A stretch of 64,000 nt of DNA, from the NCBI GenBank assembly GCA_965262725.1, contig OZ253555.1, positions 1,088,001 through 1,152,000 of the forward strand, given 5' to 3'. Below are positions 46,968 through 54,728 of this stretch, in pieces; position 1 is the stretch's first letter; the number at the start of each line of letters is the position of its first letter. The position numbers and the translations under genes were made by a program. The notes under the pieces are model-generated. The model ran no database searches. It saw only the letters and a program-made list of their open reading frames with translations, and was not told the origin of the DNA. Origin of the DNA: Dehalococcoidia bacterium (GTDB lineage: Bacteria; Chloroflexota; Dehalococcoidia; UBA2979).

Positions 46968-47579
46968 GTGGCGCGGTTGCGTGATGTCAGGACGCTGGGC
47001 CGCGCCGCGGTCGTCGCCGCCGTCGTGCTCACGATCGCGGGGATCGTCCTCCAGCGCGAGGTGCTGACCCGGGACGACGGTGAGCGGATCGGCGCCACCG
47101 ACGGACAGCGCCCCCGCGAGGGGGAGCCCGCGCCGGACTTCACTTTGCTCTCCGCGGAGGGGGAGCGCGTCGCGCTCTCCGACTTCCGCGGCAAGACGGT
47201 CGTCCTCAATTTCTGGGCGACTTGGTGCCCCCCTTGCCGTGCCGAGATGCCGGAGCTGCAGGCGGTGTGGGAGGAACGCGGCGAGGGTGAGGACCTGGTC
47301 GTTCTCGCGGTCGACGTCGGGGAACGTGCAGATGAGGTGCTGGCCTTCGTCGAGAACTTCGAACTGACGTTCCCCGTCGCTCTCGATGTCGACGGCTCCG
47401 TTGCCGACCACTACGGTCTCCCCGGGCTCCCGTCGACGTTCTTCATCGACGCCGAAGGCGTGCTGCGCTCACAGGTTCTAGGCCCCGTCTTCGGAGATCT
47501 CCTGGAGGCGGGTATCGCGGCAGCGGACGCGGGCGGCGCCCCCGAGCGCCCGACCTCTGCTCGCCCGCCGGCGCGGTGA
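46968..47579 (+). CDS. TlpA/ResA family thiol-disulfide oxidoreductase, membrane-anchored
   Basis: N-terminal [33 protein letters not shown]; SD AGGAGG. Confidence 0.93.
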
Positions 47580-47595: not shown

Positions 47596-49236
47596 GTGTT
47601 CGTCTACCGCTACGAGGATCTGCGTTTCGAATCGCGACGCTCGCCGCTGATCACGCGGCGCGCCGCCGTCGCGACCAGCCAGCCTCTCGCCGCTCATGTC
47701 GGTCTCGAGATCCTGCAATCGGGCGGCAACGCTGCCGACGCCGCCGTCGCCACGGCGGCCGCGCTGAACGTCGTTGAGCCGACGATGACGGGGATCGGCG
47801 GGGACTGCTTCGCGCTCTACTTCGATGCGGCGAGCCGGGCGGTGCACGCCGTCAACGGGAGCGGACGCGCCCCGGCGGCACTCACCCTCGCCGAGCTCAA
47901 GCGCCGGGGCGTGCGCGGCGTTCTGCCGCAGCGGAGCGCGCTGGCGGTCACAGTGCCCGGTGCCGCGGCGGGGTGGTCCGACACGGTGGATCGGCACGGG
48001 CGCCTCGCGCTCGCCGACGTGCTCGCCCCGGCGATCGCGCTCGCCGAGGAGGGGGCTCCGGTCTCGCCGCTCGTGGCCTACCTCTGGGCCCAGGGGGAGC
48101 CGCACCTTAGGCAGGGGCCGCACGCGGACGAGATGCTGCTCGGGGGCCGCCCCCCCCGGGCCGGGGAGATCTGGCGCAATCCGACTCTCGCGCGAACCCT
48201 CCGAGCCGTAGCCGGAGGCGGAGCCGAGGGCTTCTACACCGGTCGCATCGCCGAGGCGATTTGCGCAGTCGTGCACGAGCTCGGCGGCGTGCTGACGACC
48301 GGCGACCTCGCCGCGCACCGCTCGACCTTCGAGGCGCCGATCCGCGCCCGCTACGGGGATCACTGGATCTACGAGTGTGCCCCGCCCGGGCAGGGTCTGG
48401 CGGCGCTGATGGCGCTTCAAATCGCCGCAGGACTCCCGCTGGAGGGTCGGGAACCGCGCTCGGCCGAGGCGCTCCATCTGCTGATCGAGGCGATGCGGCT
48501 TGCCTTCGCTGACGCCCGACGCTATGTCGCCGATCCGGCCTTCGCCGACGTGCCGGTCGAGGCGCTGCTCGATCCCTCCTACGCCGCCGGACGGCGCGCG
48601 CTCATCGACGCGACGCGCGCGACGATCGACCCGGTTGCGGGCTCGCCGGGTGCGACATCGGACACGGTTTATCTCGCCGTGGTCGACGAGGAGGGGAACG
48701 CCTGCAGCTTCATCAACAGCAACTACAACGGGTTCGGCACCGGCATCGTGCCGGAGGGATGCGGCTTCACGCTGCAGAACCGCGGCCGGGGATTCTCGCT
48801 CGATCCGGCGCATCCGAACGCGGTGGCGCCCGGGAAGCGGCCGTACCACACGATCCTTCCCGGGCTTGTGACGCACGCCGATGGAGAGCTCTACGCCTGC
48901 TTCGGCGTGATGGGCGCCTTCATGCAACCGCAGGGCCACCTGCAGCTACTGGTGAACCTCCTGACGCACCGGATGGATCCGCAGTCGGCCCTCGACGCGC
49001 CGCGCTTCCGCATCGTTGCCGAGGAGGAGGGCGGTCGCATCCAGGTCGAGGACGGGATCCCCGATCACGTGATCGAGCGGCTCGCTCGGCTCGGCCATCC
49101 CGTGGAGCGCGTGACCGGCGTCTATCGCGCGAGCGGTAGACTGGGCCGCGGGCAGGTGATCGCGCGCGATCGCGACTCCGGGGTGCTGTGGTCGGGGTCG
49201 GACGGGCGCGCCGACGGCGCGGCGGTCGGCTACTAG
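47596..49236 (+). CDS. ggt: gamma-glutamyltransferase
   Basis: GGNAADAAVA, GIGGDCF, VPG, nucleophile SDT, LQNRG, PGKRPYHT, MGAFMQPQG. Confidence 0.93.
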   Translation: MFVYRYEDLRFESRRSPLITRRAAVATSQPLAAHVGLEILQSGGNAADAAVATAAALNVVEPTMTGIGGDCFALYFDAASRAVHAVNGSGRAPAALTLAELKRRGVRGVLPQRSALAVTVPGAAAGWSDTVDRHGRLALADVLAPAIALAEEGAPVSPLVAYLWAQGEPHLRQGPHADEMLLGGRPPRAGEIWRNPTLARTLRAVAGGGAEGFYTGRIAEAICAVVHELGGVLTTGDLAAHRSTFEAPIRARYGDHWIYECAPPGQGLAALMALQIAAGLPLEGREPRSAEALHLLIEAMRLAFADARRYVADPAFADVPVEALLDPSYAAGRRALIDATRATIDPVAGSPGATSDTVYLAVVDEEGNACSFINSNYNGFGTGIVPEGCGFTLQNRGRGFSLDPAHPNAVAPGKRPYHTILPGLVTHADGELYACFGVMGAFMQPQGHLQLLVNLLTHRMDPQSALDAPRFRIVAEEEGGRIQVEDGIPDHVIERLARLGHPVERVTGVYRASGRLGRGQVIARDRDSGVLWSGSDGRADGAAVGY

Positions 49237-49281
49237 GGAGTAGACGCGGCCGGACGAGCGTGCGGCGGCGAGGAGGGCGAG

Positions 49282-49716
49282 ATGGTCGACTCGATGACGG
49301 CGAAGGAGATGCTCTCCTTCCTCGATGAGAAGCCGCGCGCCGGCTATCTGGTCTTCACTTCGATCGGTCCCCGCGGCTACCCCCACTCGGTGCCGCTCTC
49401 CTACTTTCGGGTCGGCACCGACCTTGTGATGGGGGCCCGCGCTGGCACGCAGAAGCTGCGCAACGTGGAGCGTGACCCCCGCGTCTCAATCTCCCTAGAA
49501 GACGGCAACTCTCTCGATACGCTGCGCGGCCTGCTGATCGAGGGGGACGCCCGCGTCGTTGCCGGGGGCGCGGAGTCGCTGGAGCTAGCACGGGAGGGCG
49601 CGCGGGCACGCGGTACGCCCGAGTCGGAGCTCCCGACGGAGCTTCGGCCCGGCACCGCCTACATCCGCGTCACGCCGCGGCGGTGGATCTCGTGGGACTA
49701 CTCGAAGAGCGAGTAG
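49282..49716 (+). CDS. pyridoxamine 5'-phosphate oxidase (PPOX/FDOR) family protein, probably F420-binding
   Basis: G.PHSVP, QKLRNVERDPRVS, IRVTPRRWISWDYSK. Confidence 0.85.
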   Translation: MVDSMTAKEMLSFLDEKPRAGYLVFTSIGPRGYPHSVPLSYFRVGTDLVMGARAGTQKLRNVERDPRVSISLEDGNSLDTLRGLLIEGDARVVAGGAESLELAREGARARGTPESELPTELRPGTAYIRVTPRRWISWDYSKSE

Positions 49717-49782
49717 GATTGCACTCGGACGGTGCGCTGCTTGACTGCCCGCTCAGCGGAGGCGCAGAGGGGAACATCGGTG

Positions 49783-50592
49783 ATGAGGGCTTCGCGTCGT
49801 TCCCTGTGGCCCCTAACCCTAGGGCTGGCGATGCTGGTCGCCTGCACCTCGTCTGCCGACCAACCACCAGCTGTGACGGCGCCGGCAGAGTCCGGGAGGA
49901 CGGCTCCGACCGCCTCCGCGGCCGCGGTGCCGACGGAGTCCGGGAGGACGGCTCCGACCGCCTCCGCGGCCGCGGTGCCGACGGAGTCCGGGAGGACGGC
50001 TCCGACCGCCTCCGCGGCCGCGGTGCCGACGGAGTCCGGGAGGACGGCTCCGACCGCCTCCGCGGCCGCAGCGCCGACGGAGTCCGGGAGCACGGCTCCG
50101 GCCGCGCCCGCCGGCACAGCTCCGACCTCCTCCGGGAGCGCGGCACCGAACGCGCCCGCCGCCGTAGCGACCGCGCCTCCGGACGTCGGCTTCCCGACTG
50201 GCCCGGCCGTCCTGGTCGTGGCCAACTATGAGCCGCCGCCCGACCGCGTGGACTCGACGGGCGCCTTCCTGCCGGCGAACGGGAAGCCGACGCTGGTCTT
50301 CGTCGATGCGATTTGGTGACCGTCCTGCGCGCTCGCGCGGCCCGTCGTGCACGGGCTTCGGAACGAGTACCAGGACCGAGTGAATTTCGTCATTCTCGAC
50401 TTCGACCGGGACGACGAGCGCGACCTCGCGAGTGCCATGGGCGTGGGACGGCATCCGGCGTATGCGGTCGTGCCACCCGCCTCGCCGCCCGGTGATGCCC
50501 TCCTGCAGCGATTCGGACCGCTCACCGAGGATCATCTGCGTGCTTTGCTCGTGGAGGTCGCGGAGCTCTTTCCGACCGAGGGGGGCAGCTGA
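49783..50592 (+). CDS. thioredoxin-fold lipoprotein with UxxC motif, probable selenoprotein (TGA 50317-50319 read as Sec)
   Basis: lipobox LVAC; Ala/Pro/Thr repeat stalk; GKPTLVFVDAIW-TGA-PSC continues in frame into RPVVHGLRNEYQDRVNFVILDFD..HP; hairpin downstream of the TGA. Confidence 0.82.
49888..50100 (+). repeat. 48-bp coding tandem repeat (~4.4 copies; ESGRTAPTASAAAVPT)
   Basis: units start at 49888, 49936, 49984, 50032 and 50080; first three identical, fourth with V>A, fifth partial. Confidence 0.95.
50320..50367 (+). promoter_or_regulatory. candidate bacterial SECIS element
   Basis: stem GCCCGT (50340-50345)/ACGGGC (50351-50356), loop CGTGC with G in second position, 26 nt after the UGA; possible lower stem CTCG/CGAG. 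Confidence 0.6.
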
Positions 50593-50604
50593 GGACCGGG
50601 GTCG

Positions 50605-51933
50605 CTACGCCGGTTCGCACACGGCCCGCACGCCGCAGAAGAGGATCTCGATCCCGAGGCGCAGGTTCTCGATCGAGAGGCGCTCGTCATTGCCGTGGGC
50701 CCGTCCGCTCTCCCCCTCCGAGAGGAGCACCGGCACGAAGCCGTAGGCGGGGATGCCGCGCCGTCGGAAGACGCGAGAGTCGGTGAAGCCCGTCGAGACG
50801 CCGGGGACGACCGCCGCCGCCTCGACGACCGAGAGCGCTGCCGCCTCCAGAGCACGGTAGAGTTCGGTATCGACGGATGAGGCGCGCGTCGACGACGAGA
50901 ACACGGTCTCAACCTCGACCGTCGGATCGTCGATCACACGCGCGAGCTCCGCGAGAAAGCCCTGCGGGTTGTCGCCGGGCAGGAGCCGGACATCGAGCGT
51001 CGCCTCGGCGAGCGAGGGGATGACGTTGTGCTTCACACCGGCCGTGACGCTGGTGACGGCGATGGAGGCGCGCTCCAGCGAGCGTAGCCGGGGCTCAGTG
51101 GCTGCGAGCCTGGCGAGCGCCTCGACCGTGGGCGGGCCCTTCAGCGCGCCGGCCCGGTGCAGCGCCCTCAGGTATGCGGTGACCTCCGGCACGAGCCGCG
51201 CCGGGCGCTGCCACCCCTCGATCCGCGAGAGCGCGCGCACCAGCCGCTCGATCGCCGCGTCGGCGTGCGGCACCGACCCGTGGCCGGCCTGGCCCGTCGC
51301 GCGCAGCGTGAGCCAGAGCGGTCCCTTCTCGGAGACGCCGATGGTGAAGATCGGGCGCTTCACCCCGAACGTCTCCTGAGCGCCCATGCCGCCCTCGTTG
51401 ATCACGTAGGCGCAATCGAGCAGTTCCGGGTGGTCGCGGTCGAGGAACTCGATCCCCCAGCCGCCACCAGCCTCCTCGTCGGGCACGGCCATCAGCATGA
51501 GATCGCGCCCCAGCGGGAGCCCGAGTCGCCGGTGCAGGAGCAGCACGAGCAGCTCCATCACGCCCATCCCCTTCATGTCGATCGTGCCGCGTCCCCACAC
51601 GTGACCGTCGCTCACGGCGCCCGCGAACGGATCGACCGACCAGTGACCGCGCTCGGCGGGAACGACGTCGGTGTGATGCAGGAGCACCAGCGGTCCGCCG
51701 CGCGAGCCGTCGCCGGCGAGCTGCGCGATGAGGCTCGTGCGCGAGGCACCCGCCCCGGGGCCCGGGTCGATCCGGCGCGACGGTATTCCCTCGGCGTCAA
51801 GCACCTCGGCCAGCCAGTCGCAGGCACCGATTTCGTTGCCCGGCGGGTTCGTCGTGTCGATGCGCACGTACGTCGAGAGCAGCTCCACCGCCTCGGCGGT
51901 GACGGCCTCCCAGTCCACCTGCGGAGGGCTCAT
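50605..51933 (-). CDS. M20/M25/M40 family metallo-hydrolase
   Basis: IDTTNPPGNE, HHTDVVPA, WGRGTIDMKG, PDEEAGG, NEGG, GHGS, GFTDSR, HGNDER. Confidence 0.92.
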   Translation of the reverse strand: MSPPQVDWEAVTAEAVELLSTYVRIDTTNPPGNEIGACDWLAEVLDAEGIPSRRIDPGPGAGASRTSLIAQLAGDGSRGGPLVLLHHTDVVPAERGHWSVDPFAGAVSDGHVWGRGTIDMKGMGVMELLVLLLHRRLGLPLGRDLMLMAVPDEEAGGGWGIEFLDRDHPELLDCAYVINEGGMGAQETFGVKRPIFTIGVSEKGPLWLTLRATGQAGHGSVPHADAAIERLVRALSRIEGWQRPARLVPEVTAYLRALHRAGALKGPPTVEALARLAATEPRLRSLERASIAVTSVTAGVKHNVIPSLAEATLDVRLLPGDNPQGFLAELARVIDDPTVEVETVFSSSTRASSVDTELYRALEAAALSVVEAAAVVPGVSTGFTDSRVFRRRGIPAYGFVPVLLSEGESGRAHGNDERLSIENLRLGIEILFCGVRAVCEPA

Positions 51934-52814
51934 CCGCCGACCCCCGCCTCCCGGCAGCACCCGGCGAAGACGGTCATCGCCTCGATGTGGGACCCCGCGC
52001 CGCGCAGCCCCGCCCCCATCGTGTTCAGTGTGAGGTGCGTGGCCCCCGCCTCCTCCCAGGCGCGGGCTGCGGCGACCTGTTCACGCACGTTCCGTCCAGC
52101 GATCTGCACGCGCGTCTCGACGCCGATCGAGGCGGGGTCGCGCCCCGCGCGGCGGATCTCGCGGTGCAGTTCCGTGAGCGGGCCCGCGAGCGAGGCCGGG
52201 TCCCCGCGCAGGCGGGGCGTGATCAGCCATCCGTCGGCGTGGCGCGCGATCCGGGAGAAGACGGCGGGCGCGCCGCCACCCATCCAGAGCGGTACCCTCC
52301 CGCCGGGTGGTCGGGGCTTCACGCCGGCCGAGCTGACGCGATGGAAGCGGCCCTCGAAGCGCACGGACGGCCGCTCCCACAGGGCGCGCATCAGCGCGAT
52401 CTGCTCCTCGATTCGCTTGCCTCGCGTGTGGTAGTCGACGTCCAGGGCCTCGAACGGCGGACGCTGCGAGCCGACGCCGACGCCGAGCCAAAGGCGGCCG
52501 TCGGAGAGCACGGCGAGCTCTGCGGCTTGCTTCGCCACGAGGGCGCCCTGTCGCGGCGGCAGGACCAGCACGCCCGTCAGGAAGCGCAGGCGGCTTGTCA
52601 CGGCCGCCATGTACGCGAAGAGCACCAGCGGCTCGTGCCGGGTCCGCTCGGCGGGATCGCGCAGCACGCCCGGGTGGTCGGGATCCGCGCCGAAGACGTG
52701 GTCGAAGGCGACGGCGTAGTGGTAGCCGGCCTCCTCGGCGGCGCGCGCCCACTCGGCGACGGCGTTCGGCTCTGTGATCGGATCGAGCTGCGGAAAGACC
52801 ACACCCAGCGGCAT
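51930..52814 (-). CDS. LLM class (probably F420-dependent) oxidoreductase
   Basis: GVVFPQ, FDHVFG, HEPLVLFAY, VLVLP..VAKQAAEL..LSDGR..LGVGVG. Confidence 0.88.
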   Translation of the reverse strand: MPLGVVFPQLDPITEPNAVAEWARAAEEAGYHYAVAFDHVFGADPDHPGVLRDPAERTRHEPLVLFAYMAAVTSRLRFLTGVLVLPPRQGALVAKQAAELAVLSDGRLWLGVGVGSQRPPFEALDVDYHTRGKRIEEQIALMRALWERPSVRFEGRFHRVSSAGVKPRPPGGRVPLWMGGGAPAVFSRIARHADGWLITPRLRGDPASLAGPLTELHREIRRAGRDPASIGVETRVQIAGRNVREQVAAARAWEEAGATHLTLNTMGAGLRGAGSHIEAMTVFAGCCREAGVGG

Positions 52815-53837: not shown

Positions 53838-54728
53838 GTGTACGTCGTTGTTCTTGTTGCCGCAGTCGTCGCGATCTCCTGGGCGGCGCCGTTGATCCGG
53901 CTGGCCGAGGCACCGGTACTCGTCATCGCCGCTCTCCGGATCGGCTTCGCCGCCGCGCCGATGGCGGCGGCCGCGGCCTGGTGGCGTCGCGATGAGCTGA
54001 GGATGCTCGGCCGAGACGGGCCCGCTCGTCGCGACGCGGCGTTCGTCGCGTTGGCCGGCGCGGCGCTCGCCGGCCACTTCTGGGCATGGGTGTCGGCCAT
54101 CGATCGGACGTCGGTGATCACGAGCGTCGTGCTCGTCGCCCTCCAGCCCTTGATCGCCGCGCTTGGCGCGTGGCTGTTGCTCCGCGAGCGGCCTCCACGC
54201 GTGACGCTCGTGGGGATGGCGATCGCGTTCGGCGGGGCGTTGCTCCTCATCGCCGACGACCTCGGCGAACGCGGCTCGCTCACGGGTGACGGCCTCGCGC
54301 TCCTCGCCGCGGTGCTGGCGAGCGGCTATCTGGTCGCCGGCCGCCGCGCGCGGCGCCGACTCTCGAACCTCACCTACGGGGCCGTCGTCTACTCCGGGGC
54401 GGCGGCGATCCTGCTCGTGGCGATCGCCGGCTCGGGGACGCGCCTGAGCGGCCACCCGGCCGAAGCGTACCTGTTGATCGTCGCGCTCGCGCTCGGGCCC
54501 CAGATGATCGGACATAACGCTCTCAACTGGGCGCTCGGCGCGCTGCCGGCTGCGACGGTGGCGGTCGTGACTCTGGGCGAGCCGGTGGGCGCGGCCGTAA
54601 TCGCCGCACTCTTGCTCGACGAGCTGCCGAGCGCATCCGAGATCTTGGGTTCGGTGGTGGTGCTCGTCGGGGTCGGTGTGGCCCTGGCGCCTCTGTATTC
54701 GCCGGCGACTCGTCGCCAGCTTCTTTGA
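53838..54728 (+). CDS. DMT/EamA family transporter
   Basis: about 10 hydrophobic helices, ALR, HFWAW, QP, GDGLAL, PQMIGH, GEPVGA. Confidence 0.9.
   Translation: MYVVVLVAAVVAISWAAPLIRLAEAPVLVIAALRIGFAAAPMAAAAAWWRRDELRMLGRDGPARRDAAFVALAGAALAGHFWAWVSAIDRTSVITSVVLVALQPLIAALGAWLLLRERPPRVTLVGMAIAFGGALLLIADDLGERGSLTGDGLALLAAVLASGYLVAGRRARRRLSNLTYGAVVYSGAAAILLVAIAGSGTRLSGHPAEAYLLIVALALGPQMIGHNALNWALGALPAATVAVVTLGEPVGAAVIAALLLDELPSASEILGSVVVLVGVGVALAPLYSPATRRQLL

Follow-up and report, generated by a model that had tools for sequence, protein, structure and literature searches.

Does the TGA triplet at positions 50317-50319 of a stretch of Dehalococcoidia DNA end a gene, or does it encode selenocysteine (Sec) in the middle of one? 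The triplet lies in a 64,000-nucleotide stretch, called here the window, that covers positions 1,088,001 to 1,152,000 of the forward strand of contig OZ253555.1 (assembly GCA_965262725.1) from a Dehalococcoidia bacterium of the phylum Chloroflexota. A first-pass annotation of this DNA had proposed that the locus hides a selenoprotein, a thioredoxin-fold lipoprotein whose active site would read W-U-P-S-C. Our analysis supports that interpretation, through the conservation of the codon, a covarying hairpin behind it, the Sec machinery of the genome and the fold of the protein: the two open reading frames (ORFs) called on either side of the triplet very probably make up one gene in which UGA is read as Sec and which encodes an exported thioredoxin-fold redox protein.

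Under translation table 11, the ORF listing gives two plus-strand ORFs, 49732..50319 (195 aa, ending in ...FVDAIW) and 50347..50592 (81 aa), which lie in the same frame and are split at the TGA as the first-pass annotation had described. When TGA is translated as U, 49732-50592 is a single plus-strand frame whose sole internal stop is the TGA at 50317-50319, and its product reads ...GKPTLVFVDAIW-U-PSCALARPVVHGLRNEYQDRVNFVILDFD...GRHPAYAVV... with the motif W-U-P-S-C (over a longer stretch before Sec, ...NGKPTLVFVDAIW-U-PSCALARPVVHGLRNEYQDRVNFVILDFD...). The whole selenoprotein gene is placed at 49783..50592 (plus strand), from ATG 49783, which occupies the position of the homologs' Met in the protein alignment and follows, at a distance of about 8-15 nt, a purine-rich stretch (AGAGGGG) resembling a ribosome binding site, to the terminal TGA at 50590-50592. 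Counted from this ATG the product has 269 residues, the length put forward earlier, one Sec codon being among them. The candidate Sec codon (50317..50319) takes the first, nucleophilic position of the motif; the codon of the resolving Cys of UxxC (TGC) stands at 50326..50328, and that of a Pro at 50455..50457. The latter belongs to the H-P pair (50452-50457) that had been noted as resembling a cis-Pro site, and it is a putative cis-Pro, located just before strand 94-98 of the structural model. In an alignment of 66 family domains (A3), both the resolving Cys (column C50) and this Pro (P93) are invariant. It should be noted that the window gene and its closest relatives (L031-L033) also terminate with a TGA, 90 codons after the recoded one, and that most Sec-form genes of the family among loci L031-L079 end with TAG or TAA.

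To follow this codon in relatives, one genome per species was scanned with the peptide patterns TG[AV][YFH][LI]PxNGK and [TA]LV[FL]VDAIW, with the Sec codon outside the query. All 49 loci recovered came from Dehalococcoidia/Chloroflexota metagenome-assembled genomes, and the family was present in each of them. Gene copies in these loci were counted with a relaxed pattern admitting R-S for R-P, a difference found in L057, L062, L069 and L078. The Sec codon is TGA in 62 of the 64 copies and TGC in the two others, and the Sec form occurs in 47 of the 49 loci. Forty loci hold one copy, four hold two, four hold three and one holds four, the multiple copies being in tandem. Relatives have TGA or Cys at this codon, and homology runs on both sides of it with a conserved downstream part, which was one of the checks named in the first-pass annotation. 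Two motif-pattern matches, one on the minus strand of L032 and one at position 2694 of L058, were judged spurious; loci L019 and L029 overlap.

Conservation of the codon extends further into the phylum. A search of 401 genomes, whose counts are floors because the first look was stricter, gave at least 15 genomes. Distant homologs from other families of the phylum, only 24-34% identical over the domain (L015-L017, L021, L026 and L028), carry W-U-x-x-C followed by continuing homology, a sister group carries Cys and L027 is a Cys relative; in the distant match L022 the family motif was not found. A protein database search yielded 19 matches among 748 candidates. All 15 full-length homologs in this set (P0002-P0016) have Cys at the Sec position, as W-C-P-x-C or W-C-F-F-C, and the two most similar sequences, with 87-91% identity in the part that they cover, stop exactly at ...DAIW, one of them being labelled "hypothetical protein"; P0020 is a distant TlpA-family protein. 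Only six proteins were found at E < 1e-30 by an exhaustive profile search, which also returned a series of 72-81-residue "proteins" whose match to the profile begins at 53-59; gene callers produce such orphaned C-terminal halves from genes of this kind. One more database entry, the 204-residue ORF P0019 (compare L053:3459-4022), has the signal peptide of the family, runs in the +1 frame before the domain and regains the gene frame just past the Sec codon, so bypassing the TGA; this frame hybrid probably reflects indel errors in the contig rather than biology.

The TGA is not an assembly error. Contigs from three sequencing runs of three other studies span the codon and show 0 differences, only a 61-nt piece spans it in a fourth run, and no other letter occurs at 50317-50319 in the four runs. 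In one run, X16, the summed contig depth rises about 20-fold over 50278-50345, which encodes VDAIW-U-P-x-C and the start of the hairpin described below; at most nine contigs carry variants there, at 50313, 50323 and 50324 and none at the TGA. Many related organisms or paralogs in the sample have the conserved stretch in common.

A hairpin resembling a bacterial Sec insertion sequence (SECIS) is found in the coding sequence directly behind the codon (50336..50360, plus strand). It consists of a 7-bp stem (50339-50345/50351-50357) closed by the loop CGUGC (50346-50350), with lower pairs at 50336-50337/50359-50360. We aligned 54 distinct Sec-form sequences starting from the TGA (alignment A2), in which the stem occupies columns 23-29 and 35-41, the loop is CGUGC or CGUGA and the two extra pairs lie beneath a one-base bulge. 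Pairing is retained in 92.0% of the 486 cells, compared with 15.0-45.5% after a shift of the 3' partners by 1-3 columns. Compensatory double changes were found at three pairs, from CG to UA (5 sequences), GC to AU (8) and UA to GC (3); these 16 compensatory cells compare with a mean of 2.3 in shuffled alignments, and none of 500 shuffles reached 16. A fourth pair changes from CG to UA in L057, L062, L069 and L078. The distant Sec forms L015-L017, L021 and L028 keep the hairpin at the same offset and in L026 it is weakened, whereas it is absent in 8 Cys-form sequences. The bSECISearch program looks for an apical loop 16-37 nt after the UGA with G among the first two loop bases. Here the loop starts 26 nt past the UGA, its second base is G, and the place, size and loop G of the hairpin fit what is expected of a bacterial SECIS.

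Since the bases of the hairpin also encode R-P-V-V-H-G-L of helix 1, its pairing shows in the protein sequence as well. The codon of Pro is paired with that of a Gly, and this Gly occurs in 54 of 61 Sec forms and none of 10 Cys forms; some compensatory changes also alter residues (Val to Ile, Gly to Arg, Pro to Ser).

Is the organism able to decode UGA in this way? Its genome, a single contig of 3.67 Mb, was searched for the four sel genes that the first-pass annotation had named, and all have a counterpart: profiles for selA (542.9 bits), selB (284.9 bits) and selD (356.9 bits) match above their curated cut-offs, and one tRNA-SeC with anticodon tca is present. The organism is equipped to decode UGA as Sec. 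The selD gene (G000:C1:2792527-2793462, minus strand, locus L001, outside the window) is a selenoprotein gene too, with one in-frame TGA in C-A-G-U-A-G-K and stable hairpins behind it.

The joined protein has the fold expected from its motif. The core at 50290..50589 (plus strand), arranged as beta-alpha-beta-alpha-beta-beta-alpha, matches PF00085 Thioredoxin above the gathering cut-off of 23.5 (27.4 bits over the whole protein, 29.6 over the domain), and the profile also matches every one of the 66 domains in the family alignment at E up to 0.01. The AlphaFold2 model computed on the 66-sequence alignment is a minimal thioredoxin fold of high confidence (predicted local distance difference test, pLDDT, 89.8; predicted template modelling score 0.85); modelling of the joined protein was a check that the first-pass annotation had named. 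Classical thioredoxins came first both in a profile search of the PDB (best E = 4.6e-14) and in Foldseek (template modelling score to target 0.72-0.75), and not TlpA, CcmG or DsbA. Seven columns of A3 are invariant, W46, U/C47, C50, R54, P55, L60 and P93, and in the model the redox motif sits at the start of helix 48-64. The TrxA equivalog TIGR01068 reached only 25.6-27.5 bits against a curated cut-off of 96.8, so the protein is a thioredoxin-fold relative and not a TrxA ortholog. Redoxin PF08534 stayed at 14.7-16.3 bits against a cut-off of 26.6 and matched 7 of the 66 members; AhpC-TSA PF00578 gave no match in the window protein and matched 1 of the 66, and PF01323 DSBA matched 2 of the 66, weakly.

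In front of this core, the conserved N-terminal extension of 37 residues (50179..50289, plus strand; FPTGPAVLV...STGAFLPANGKP) is retained in alignments A1 and A3 and modelled with pLDDT 72-92, no DSSP elements being assigned to it. It is preceded by an Ala/Pro/Thr/Ser-rich low-complexity linker (49846..50178, plus strand), in which Tandem Repeats Finder detected the repeats of the stalk proposed earlier, a tandem repeat at 49877-50105 with a period of 48 bp, 4.8 copies, 96% matches and a 16-residue unit. Short-read contigs of the four runs leave 49972-50039 inside this repeat uncovered and do not bridge it, so only the source assembly supports the copy number given for the window. Linkers in relatives differ greatly in length and composition, some having dozens of TPEPTPTA-like repeats. 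The N-terminus itself (49783..49845, plus strand), M-R-A-S-R-R-S-L-W-P-L-T-L-G-L-A-M-L-V-A-C, is a putative lipoprotein signal peptide that is basic, then hydrophobic, and ends in the lipobox L-V-A-C that the first-pass annotation had recognised (49834-49845, Cys codon 49843-49845). This sequence conforms to the lipobox consensus [LVI][ASTVI][GAS]C and the protein is predicted to be a lipoprotein. Most relatives with enough upstream sequence appear, by impression rather than by count, to have a Pro/Thr/Ala/Glu-rich linker behind a signal peptide whose hydrophobic stretch closes with L/I/V-A/V/L-A/G-C.

These features suggest how the gene might be expressed and how its product might work. SelB carrying Sec-tRNA(Sec) would bind the hairpin of the mRNA at 50339-50357, and the ribosome would insert Sec at the UGA 50317-50319 instead of terminating; translation would then run to the terminal TGA 50590-50592, which has no such hairpin behind it. 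The precursor would be exported by the Sec pathway and lipidated at Cys21, and the protein would be held on the outside of the cytoplasmic membrane through the Ala/Pro/Thr-rich repeat stalk of about 110 residues. In the C-terminal thioredoxin domain of about 135 residues, Sec would replace the attacking Cys and Cys50 (domain numbering) would be the resolving residue. Because Sec as attacking residue, the resolving Cys and the cis-Pro are kept together, a cycle between selenol/thiol and selenenylsulfide is expected, during which the protein would exchange with disulfides of extracytoplasmic proteins. Electrons could be passed out by a CcdA-type protein, directly or via a TlpA-like protein encoded 2 kb upstream, and would be used to reduce or isomerise disulfides of surface proteins.

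The direction of this reaction is far less certain than the selenoprotein assignment itself; we lean only modestly towards a role on the reducing side. The same selenoprotein might instead work as an oxidase that forms surface disulfides in a DsbA-like role and is re-oxidised by a VKOR homolog, a possibility that concerns direction only and that we regard as the less probable one, with perhaps a one-in-four standing. A VKOR gene (92 bits) is present in the genome as is a CcdA-type gene, the Pro at the first x position recalls the CPHC motif of DsbA, and one paralog of a relative has U-P-H-C. Against an oxidase, the fold is closest to the classical reducing thioredoxins by both profile and structure and does not have the helical insert of DsbA, the DSBA profile is nearly absent from the family as described above, and genes of relatives adjoin two TlpA-like genes, which belong to the reducing side in other bacteria. 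Three points count against a firm choice of the reducing side: U-P-x-C resembles the motifs of both the CcmG type (reducing) and the DsbA type (oxidising), the CcdA and VKOR genes both lie far from the selenoprotein gene, and its neighbours, which encode a gamma-glutamyltranspeptidase (GGT), a PNPOx-like protein and an M20 peptidase, give no clear hint on direction.

More fundamentally, the UGA might terminate translation, leaving a lipoprotein stub devoid of the active site, with or without a separate 81-residue peptide, the locus being then either a recent nonsense pseudogene or two genes. Table 11 does yield two ORFs, TGA is a normal stop in this genome and many such fragments stand in public gene calls. 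A stub, however, would be deprived of the whole thioredoxin core, and a recent nonsense mutation is difficult to reconcile with a TGA at the exact codon in 62 of the 64 copies across 49 species-level genomes, kept also in homologs of 24-34% identity with purifying conservation downstream, with a covarying hairpin and with a full Sec machinery; we consider termination very improbable. Equally improbable in our view is a read-through independent of selenium, in which a near-cognate Trp or Cys tRNA would give W-W/C-P-S-C and the hairpin would only stimulate read-through. Cys forms of the family do exist and are presumably functional, and nothing in the analysis shows selenium in the protein; against this, selA, selB, selD and tRNA-Sec are kept in the genome, the position is that of the catalytic Cys, where Trp would abolish activity, and the place, size and G-U-containing loop of the hairpin are those expected of a bacterial SECIS. 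A reassigned genetic code was rejected, as TGA is an ordinary stop elsewhere in the genome and ends 7 of the 14 window ORFs examined (13 Pfam-supported neighbours and the selenoprotein gene itself).

Several observations nevertheless weigh against the assignment of a Sec-decoded gene and temper our confidence. The case for expression and for selenium in the protein is an indirect one, built from sequence and model. The terminator of the gene is a TGA like the recoded codon. The phylum search flagged an internal TGA at nine places, and at two of them (L024 and L025) the W-U-x-x-C motif was not found. The local fold of 50311-50375, computed on the single sequence, is no more stable than shuffles (z = -0.63), so the argument for the hairpin is a comparative one only; its codons belong to a conserved helix, so its conservation is partly a protein constraint, and the kinship of the aligned sequences inflates the shuffle control. 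When 49000-51500 was scanned against Rfam at E up to 10, neither a SECIS nor another credible family turned up, and the highest-scoring match, an antisense Twister-sister (22.1 bits against a cut-off of 34), was taken as chance.

Is such a selenoprotein new? The first-pass annotation had raised the possibility of an uncatalogued family, and this part of the proposal stood only in a narrow sense. Judged by its domain and motif, the window gene belongs with the long-known UxxC thioredoxin-like selenoproteins (PF00085, "Trx-like 1"), a kind that has been known for about 20 years. UxxC proteins of the thioredoxin fold have been catalogued since the Sargasso Sea and Global Ocean Sampling analyses, and one published table (Table 2 of PMC2398784) lists "Trx-like 1, COG0526, UxxC" with 321 sequences. 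The family table of a 2026 review contains "Thioredoxin (Trx) PF00085 UxxC" and several exported thioredoxin-like families (PMC13188914), and the BSepDB database reports Dehalococcoidia genomes with 46-49 selenoprotein genes (PMC13326102). What stood of the earlier proposal is that no selenoprotein-specific NCBIfam model matches any of the 66 members: NF041057, NF047660, NF040730 and NF041383 gave no match to the window protein at E up to 1, nor to the 66 members at E up to 0.01.

With the UxxC thioredoxin-like selenoproteins the window protein shares a PF00085 match above cut-off, Sec as the first residue of CxxC, the existence of Cys homologs and a hairpin directly behind the UGA. It differs from them in its conserved 37-residue N-terminal extension, in U-P-x-C instead of U-G-P-C and in that Sec is the rule in its clade (62/64 copies). 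The thioredoxin of Treponema denticola is cytoplasmic. It is the tested UxxC example, as cited in the family review (PMC13188914), and the window protein differs from it by being predicted to be exported and lipid-anchored and by its long repetitive stalk.

A second group for comparison is formed by TlpA, ResA and CcmG (DsbE), which have a membrane-tethered thioredoxin fold outside the cytoplasm, as is predicted for the window protein, and share with it a W-C/U-P-x-C motif; true TlpA-like genes are also found near the window gene. The motif of CcmG is WCPTC. Unlike these proteins, the window protein is modelled without the central insert of TlpA and CcmG, its Redoxin score is below cut-off and its best PDB matches are thioredoxins. 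Selenoproteins are listed for this group as well, as "Redoxin family protein PF08534 UxxC" and "UGC-containing TlpA family cd02966" in the same family table (PMC13188914). That source also names the models NF041057 (DsbG-like), NF047660 (HUIPC motif) and NF040730 (SaoT) for thioredoxin-like (seleno)lipoproteins; these proteins are alike in being exported or lipoprotein thioredoxin folds with UxxC, but their models do not match the family. A full-text literature search on thioredoxin-like selenoprotein lipoproteins and Chloroflexota returned only the Haft preprint, which treats other families.

Particular to this subfamily are the lack of a curated NCBIfam selenoprotein model, the near-total use of Sec, the tandem arrays in some genomes and the imprint of the SECIS on the protein. 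The finding is solid and useful for annotation, and it is not surprising. It leaves the knowledge of Sec decoding and of thioredoxin chemistry unchanged. Ordinary gene calling splits or truncates the family in 47 of the 49 related loci, and the Dehalococcoidia selenoproteome and surface redox equipment are consequently under-counted; these calls would be mended by a model of the family that combines A3 with the conserved hairpin. The family further offers a clean case of an exported selenoprotein, predicted to be lipid-anchored, in which Sec is the rule, and one in which SECIS pairing visibly constrains the encoded amino acids.

How the Sec and Cys forms are related was examined on 80 domains (58 Sec and 22 Cys) with a quick maximum-likelihood tree, rooted at the midpoint with no outgroup. 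The Cys forms make up three groups set among Sec forms; the tree needs at least 3 changes between Sec and Cys, and well-supported branches force at least 2. Given the midpoint root and the quick tree, replacement of Sec by Cys is the parsimonious direction, not a proven one. A more ambitious scenario, which we offer as speculation and think unlikely to hold in full, is that of a Dehalococcoidia-wide family of surface thioredoxin lipoproteins that would have had Sec from its origin and, with tandem paralogs in some genomes, would carry out the last and selenium-dependent step of a thiol relay dedicated to the surface of these monoderm bacteria, SECIS pairing dictating some of its residues (Gly at +12; coupled changes of Pro to Ser, Val to Ile and Gly to Arg). 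In this genome such a relay might be tied to the salvage of thiols or glutathione, because GGT and M20 peptidase genes flank the selenoprotein gene; a link to glutathione or Cys-Gly salvage in particular is a guess.

The genes around the selenoprotein gene were placed as follows. The TlpA-like gene lies 2 kb upstream (46968-47579, plus strand) and encodes AhpC-TSA/Redoxin domains, a W-C-P-P-C motif and an N-terminal membrane anchor. It is followed by the GGT gene (47596-49236, plus strand) and by the PNPOx-like gene (49282-49716). Downstream, the M20 peptidase gene (50605-51960, minus strand) is convergent with the selenoprotein gene; among 50 loci compared, 28 have this neighbour. Beyond it lie two luciferase-like oxidoreductase genes and an EamA transporter gene (53838-54728). 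In a subset of relatives (for example L035, L040 and L053) the order is DUF3179, TlpA-like, TlpA-like, two to four Sec-thioredoxins and EamA, a cluster that looks like an extracytoplasmic thiol-redox module.

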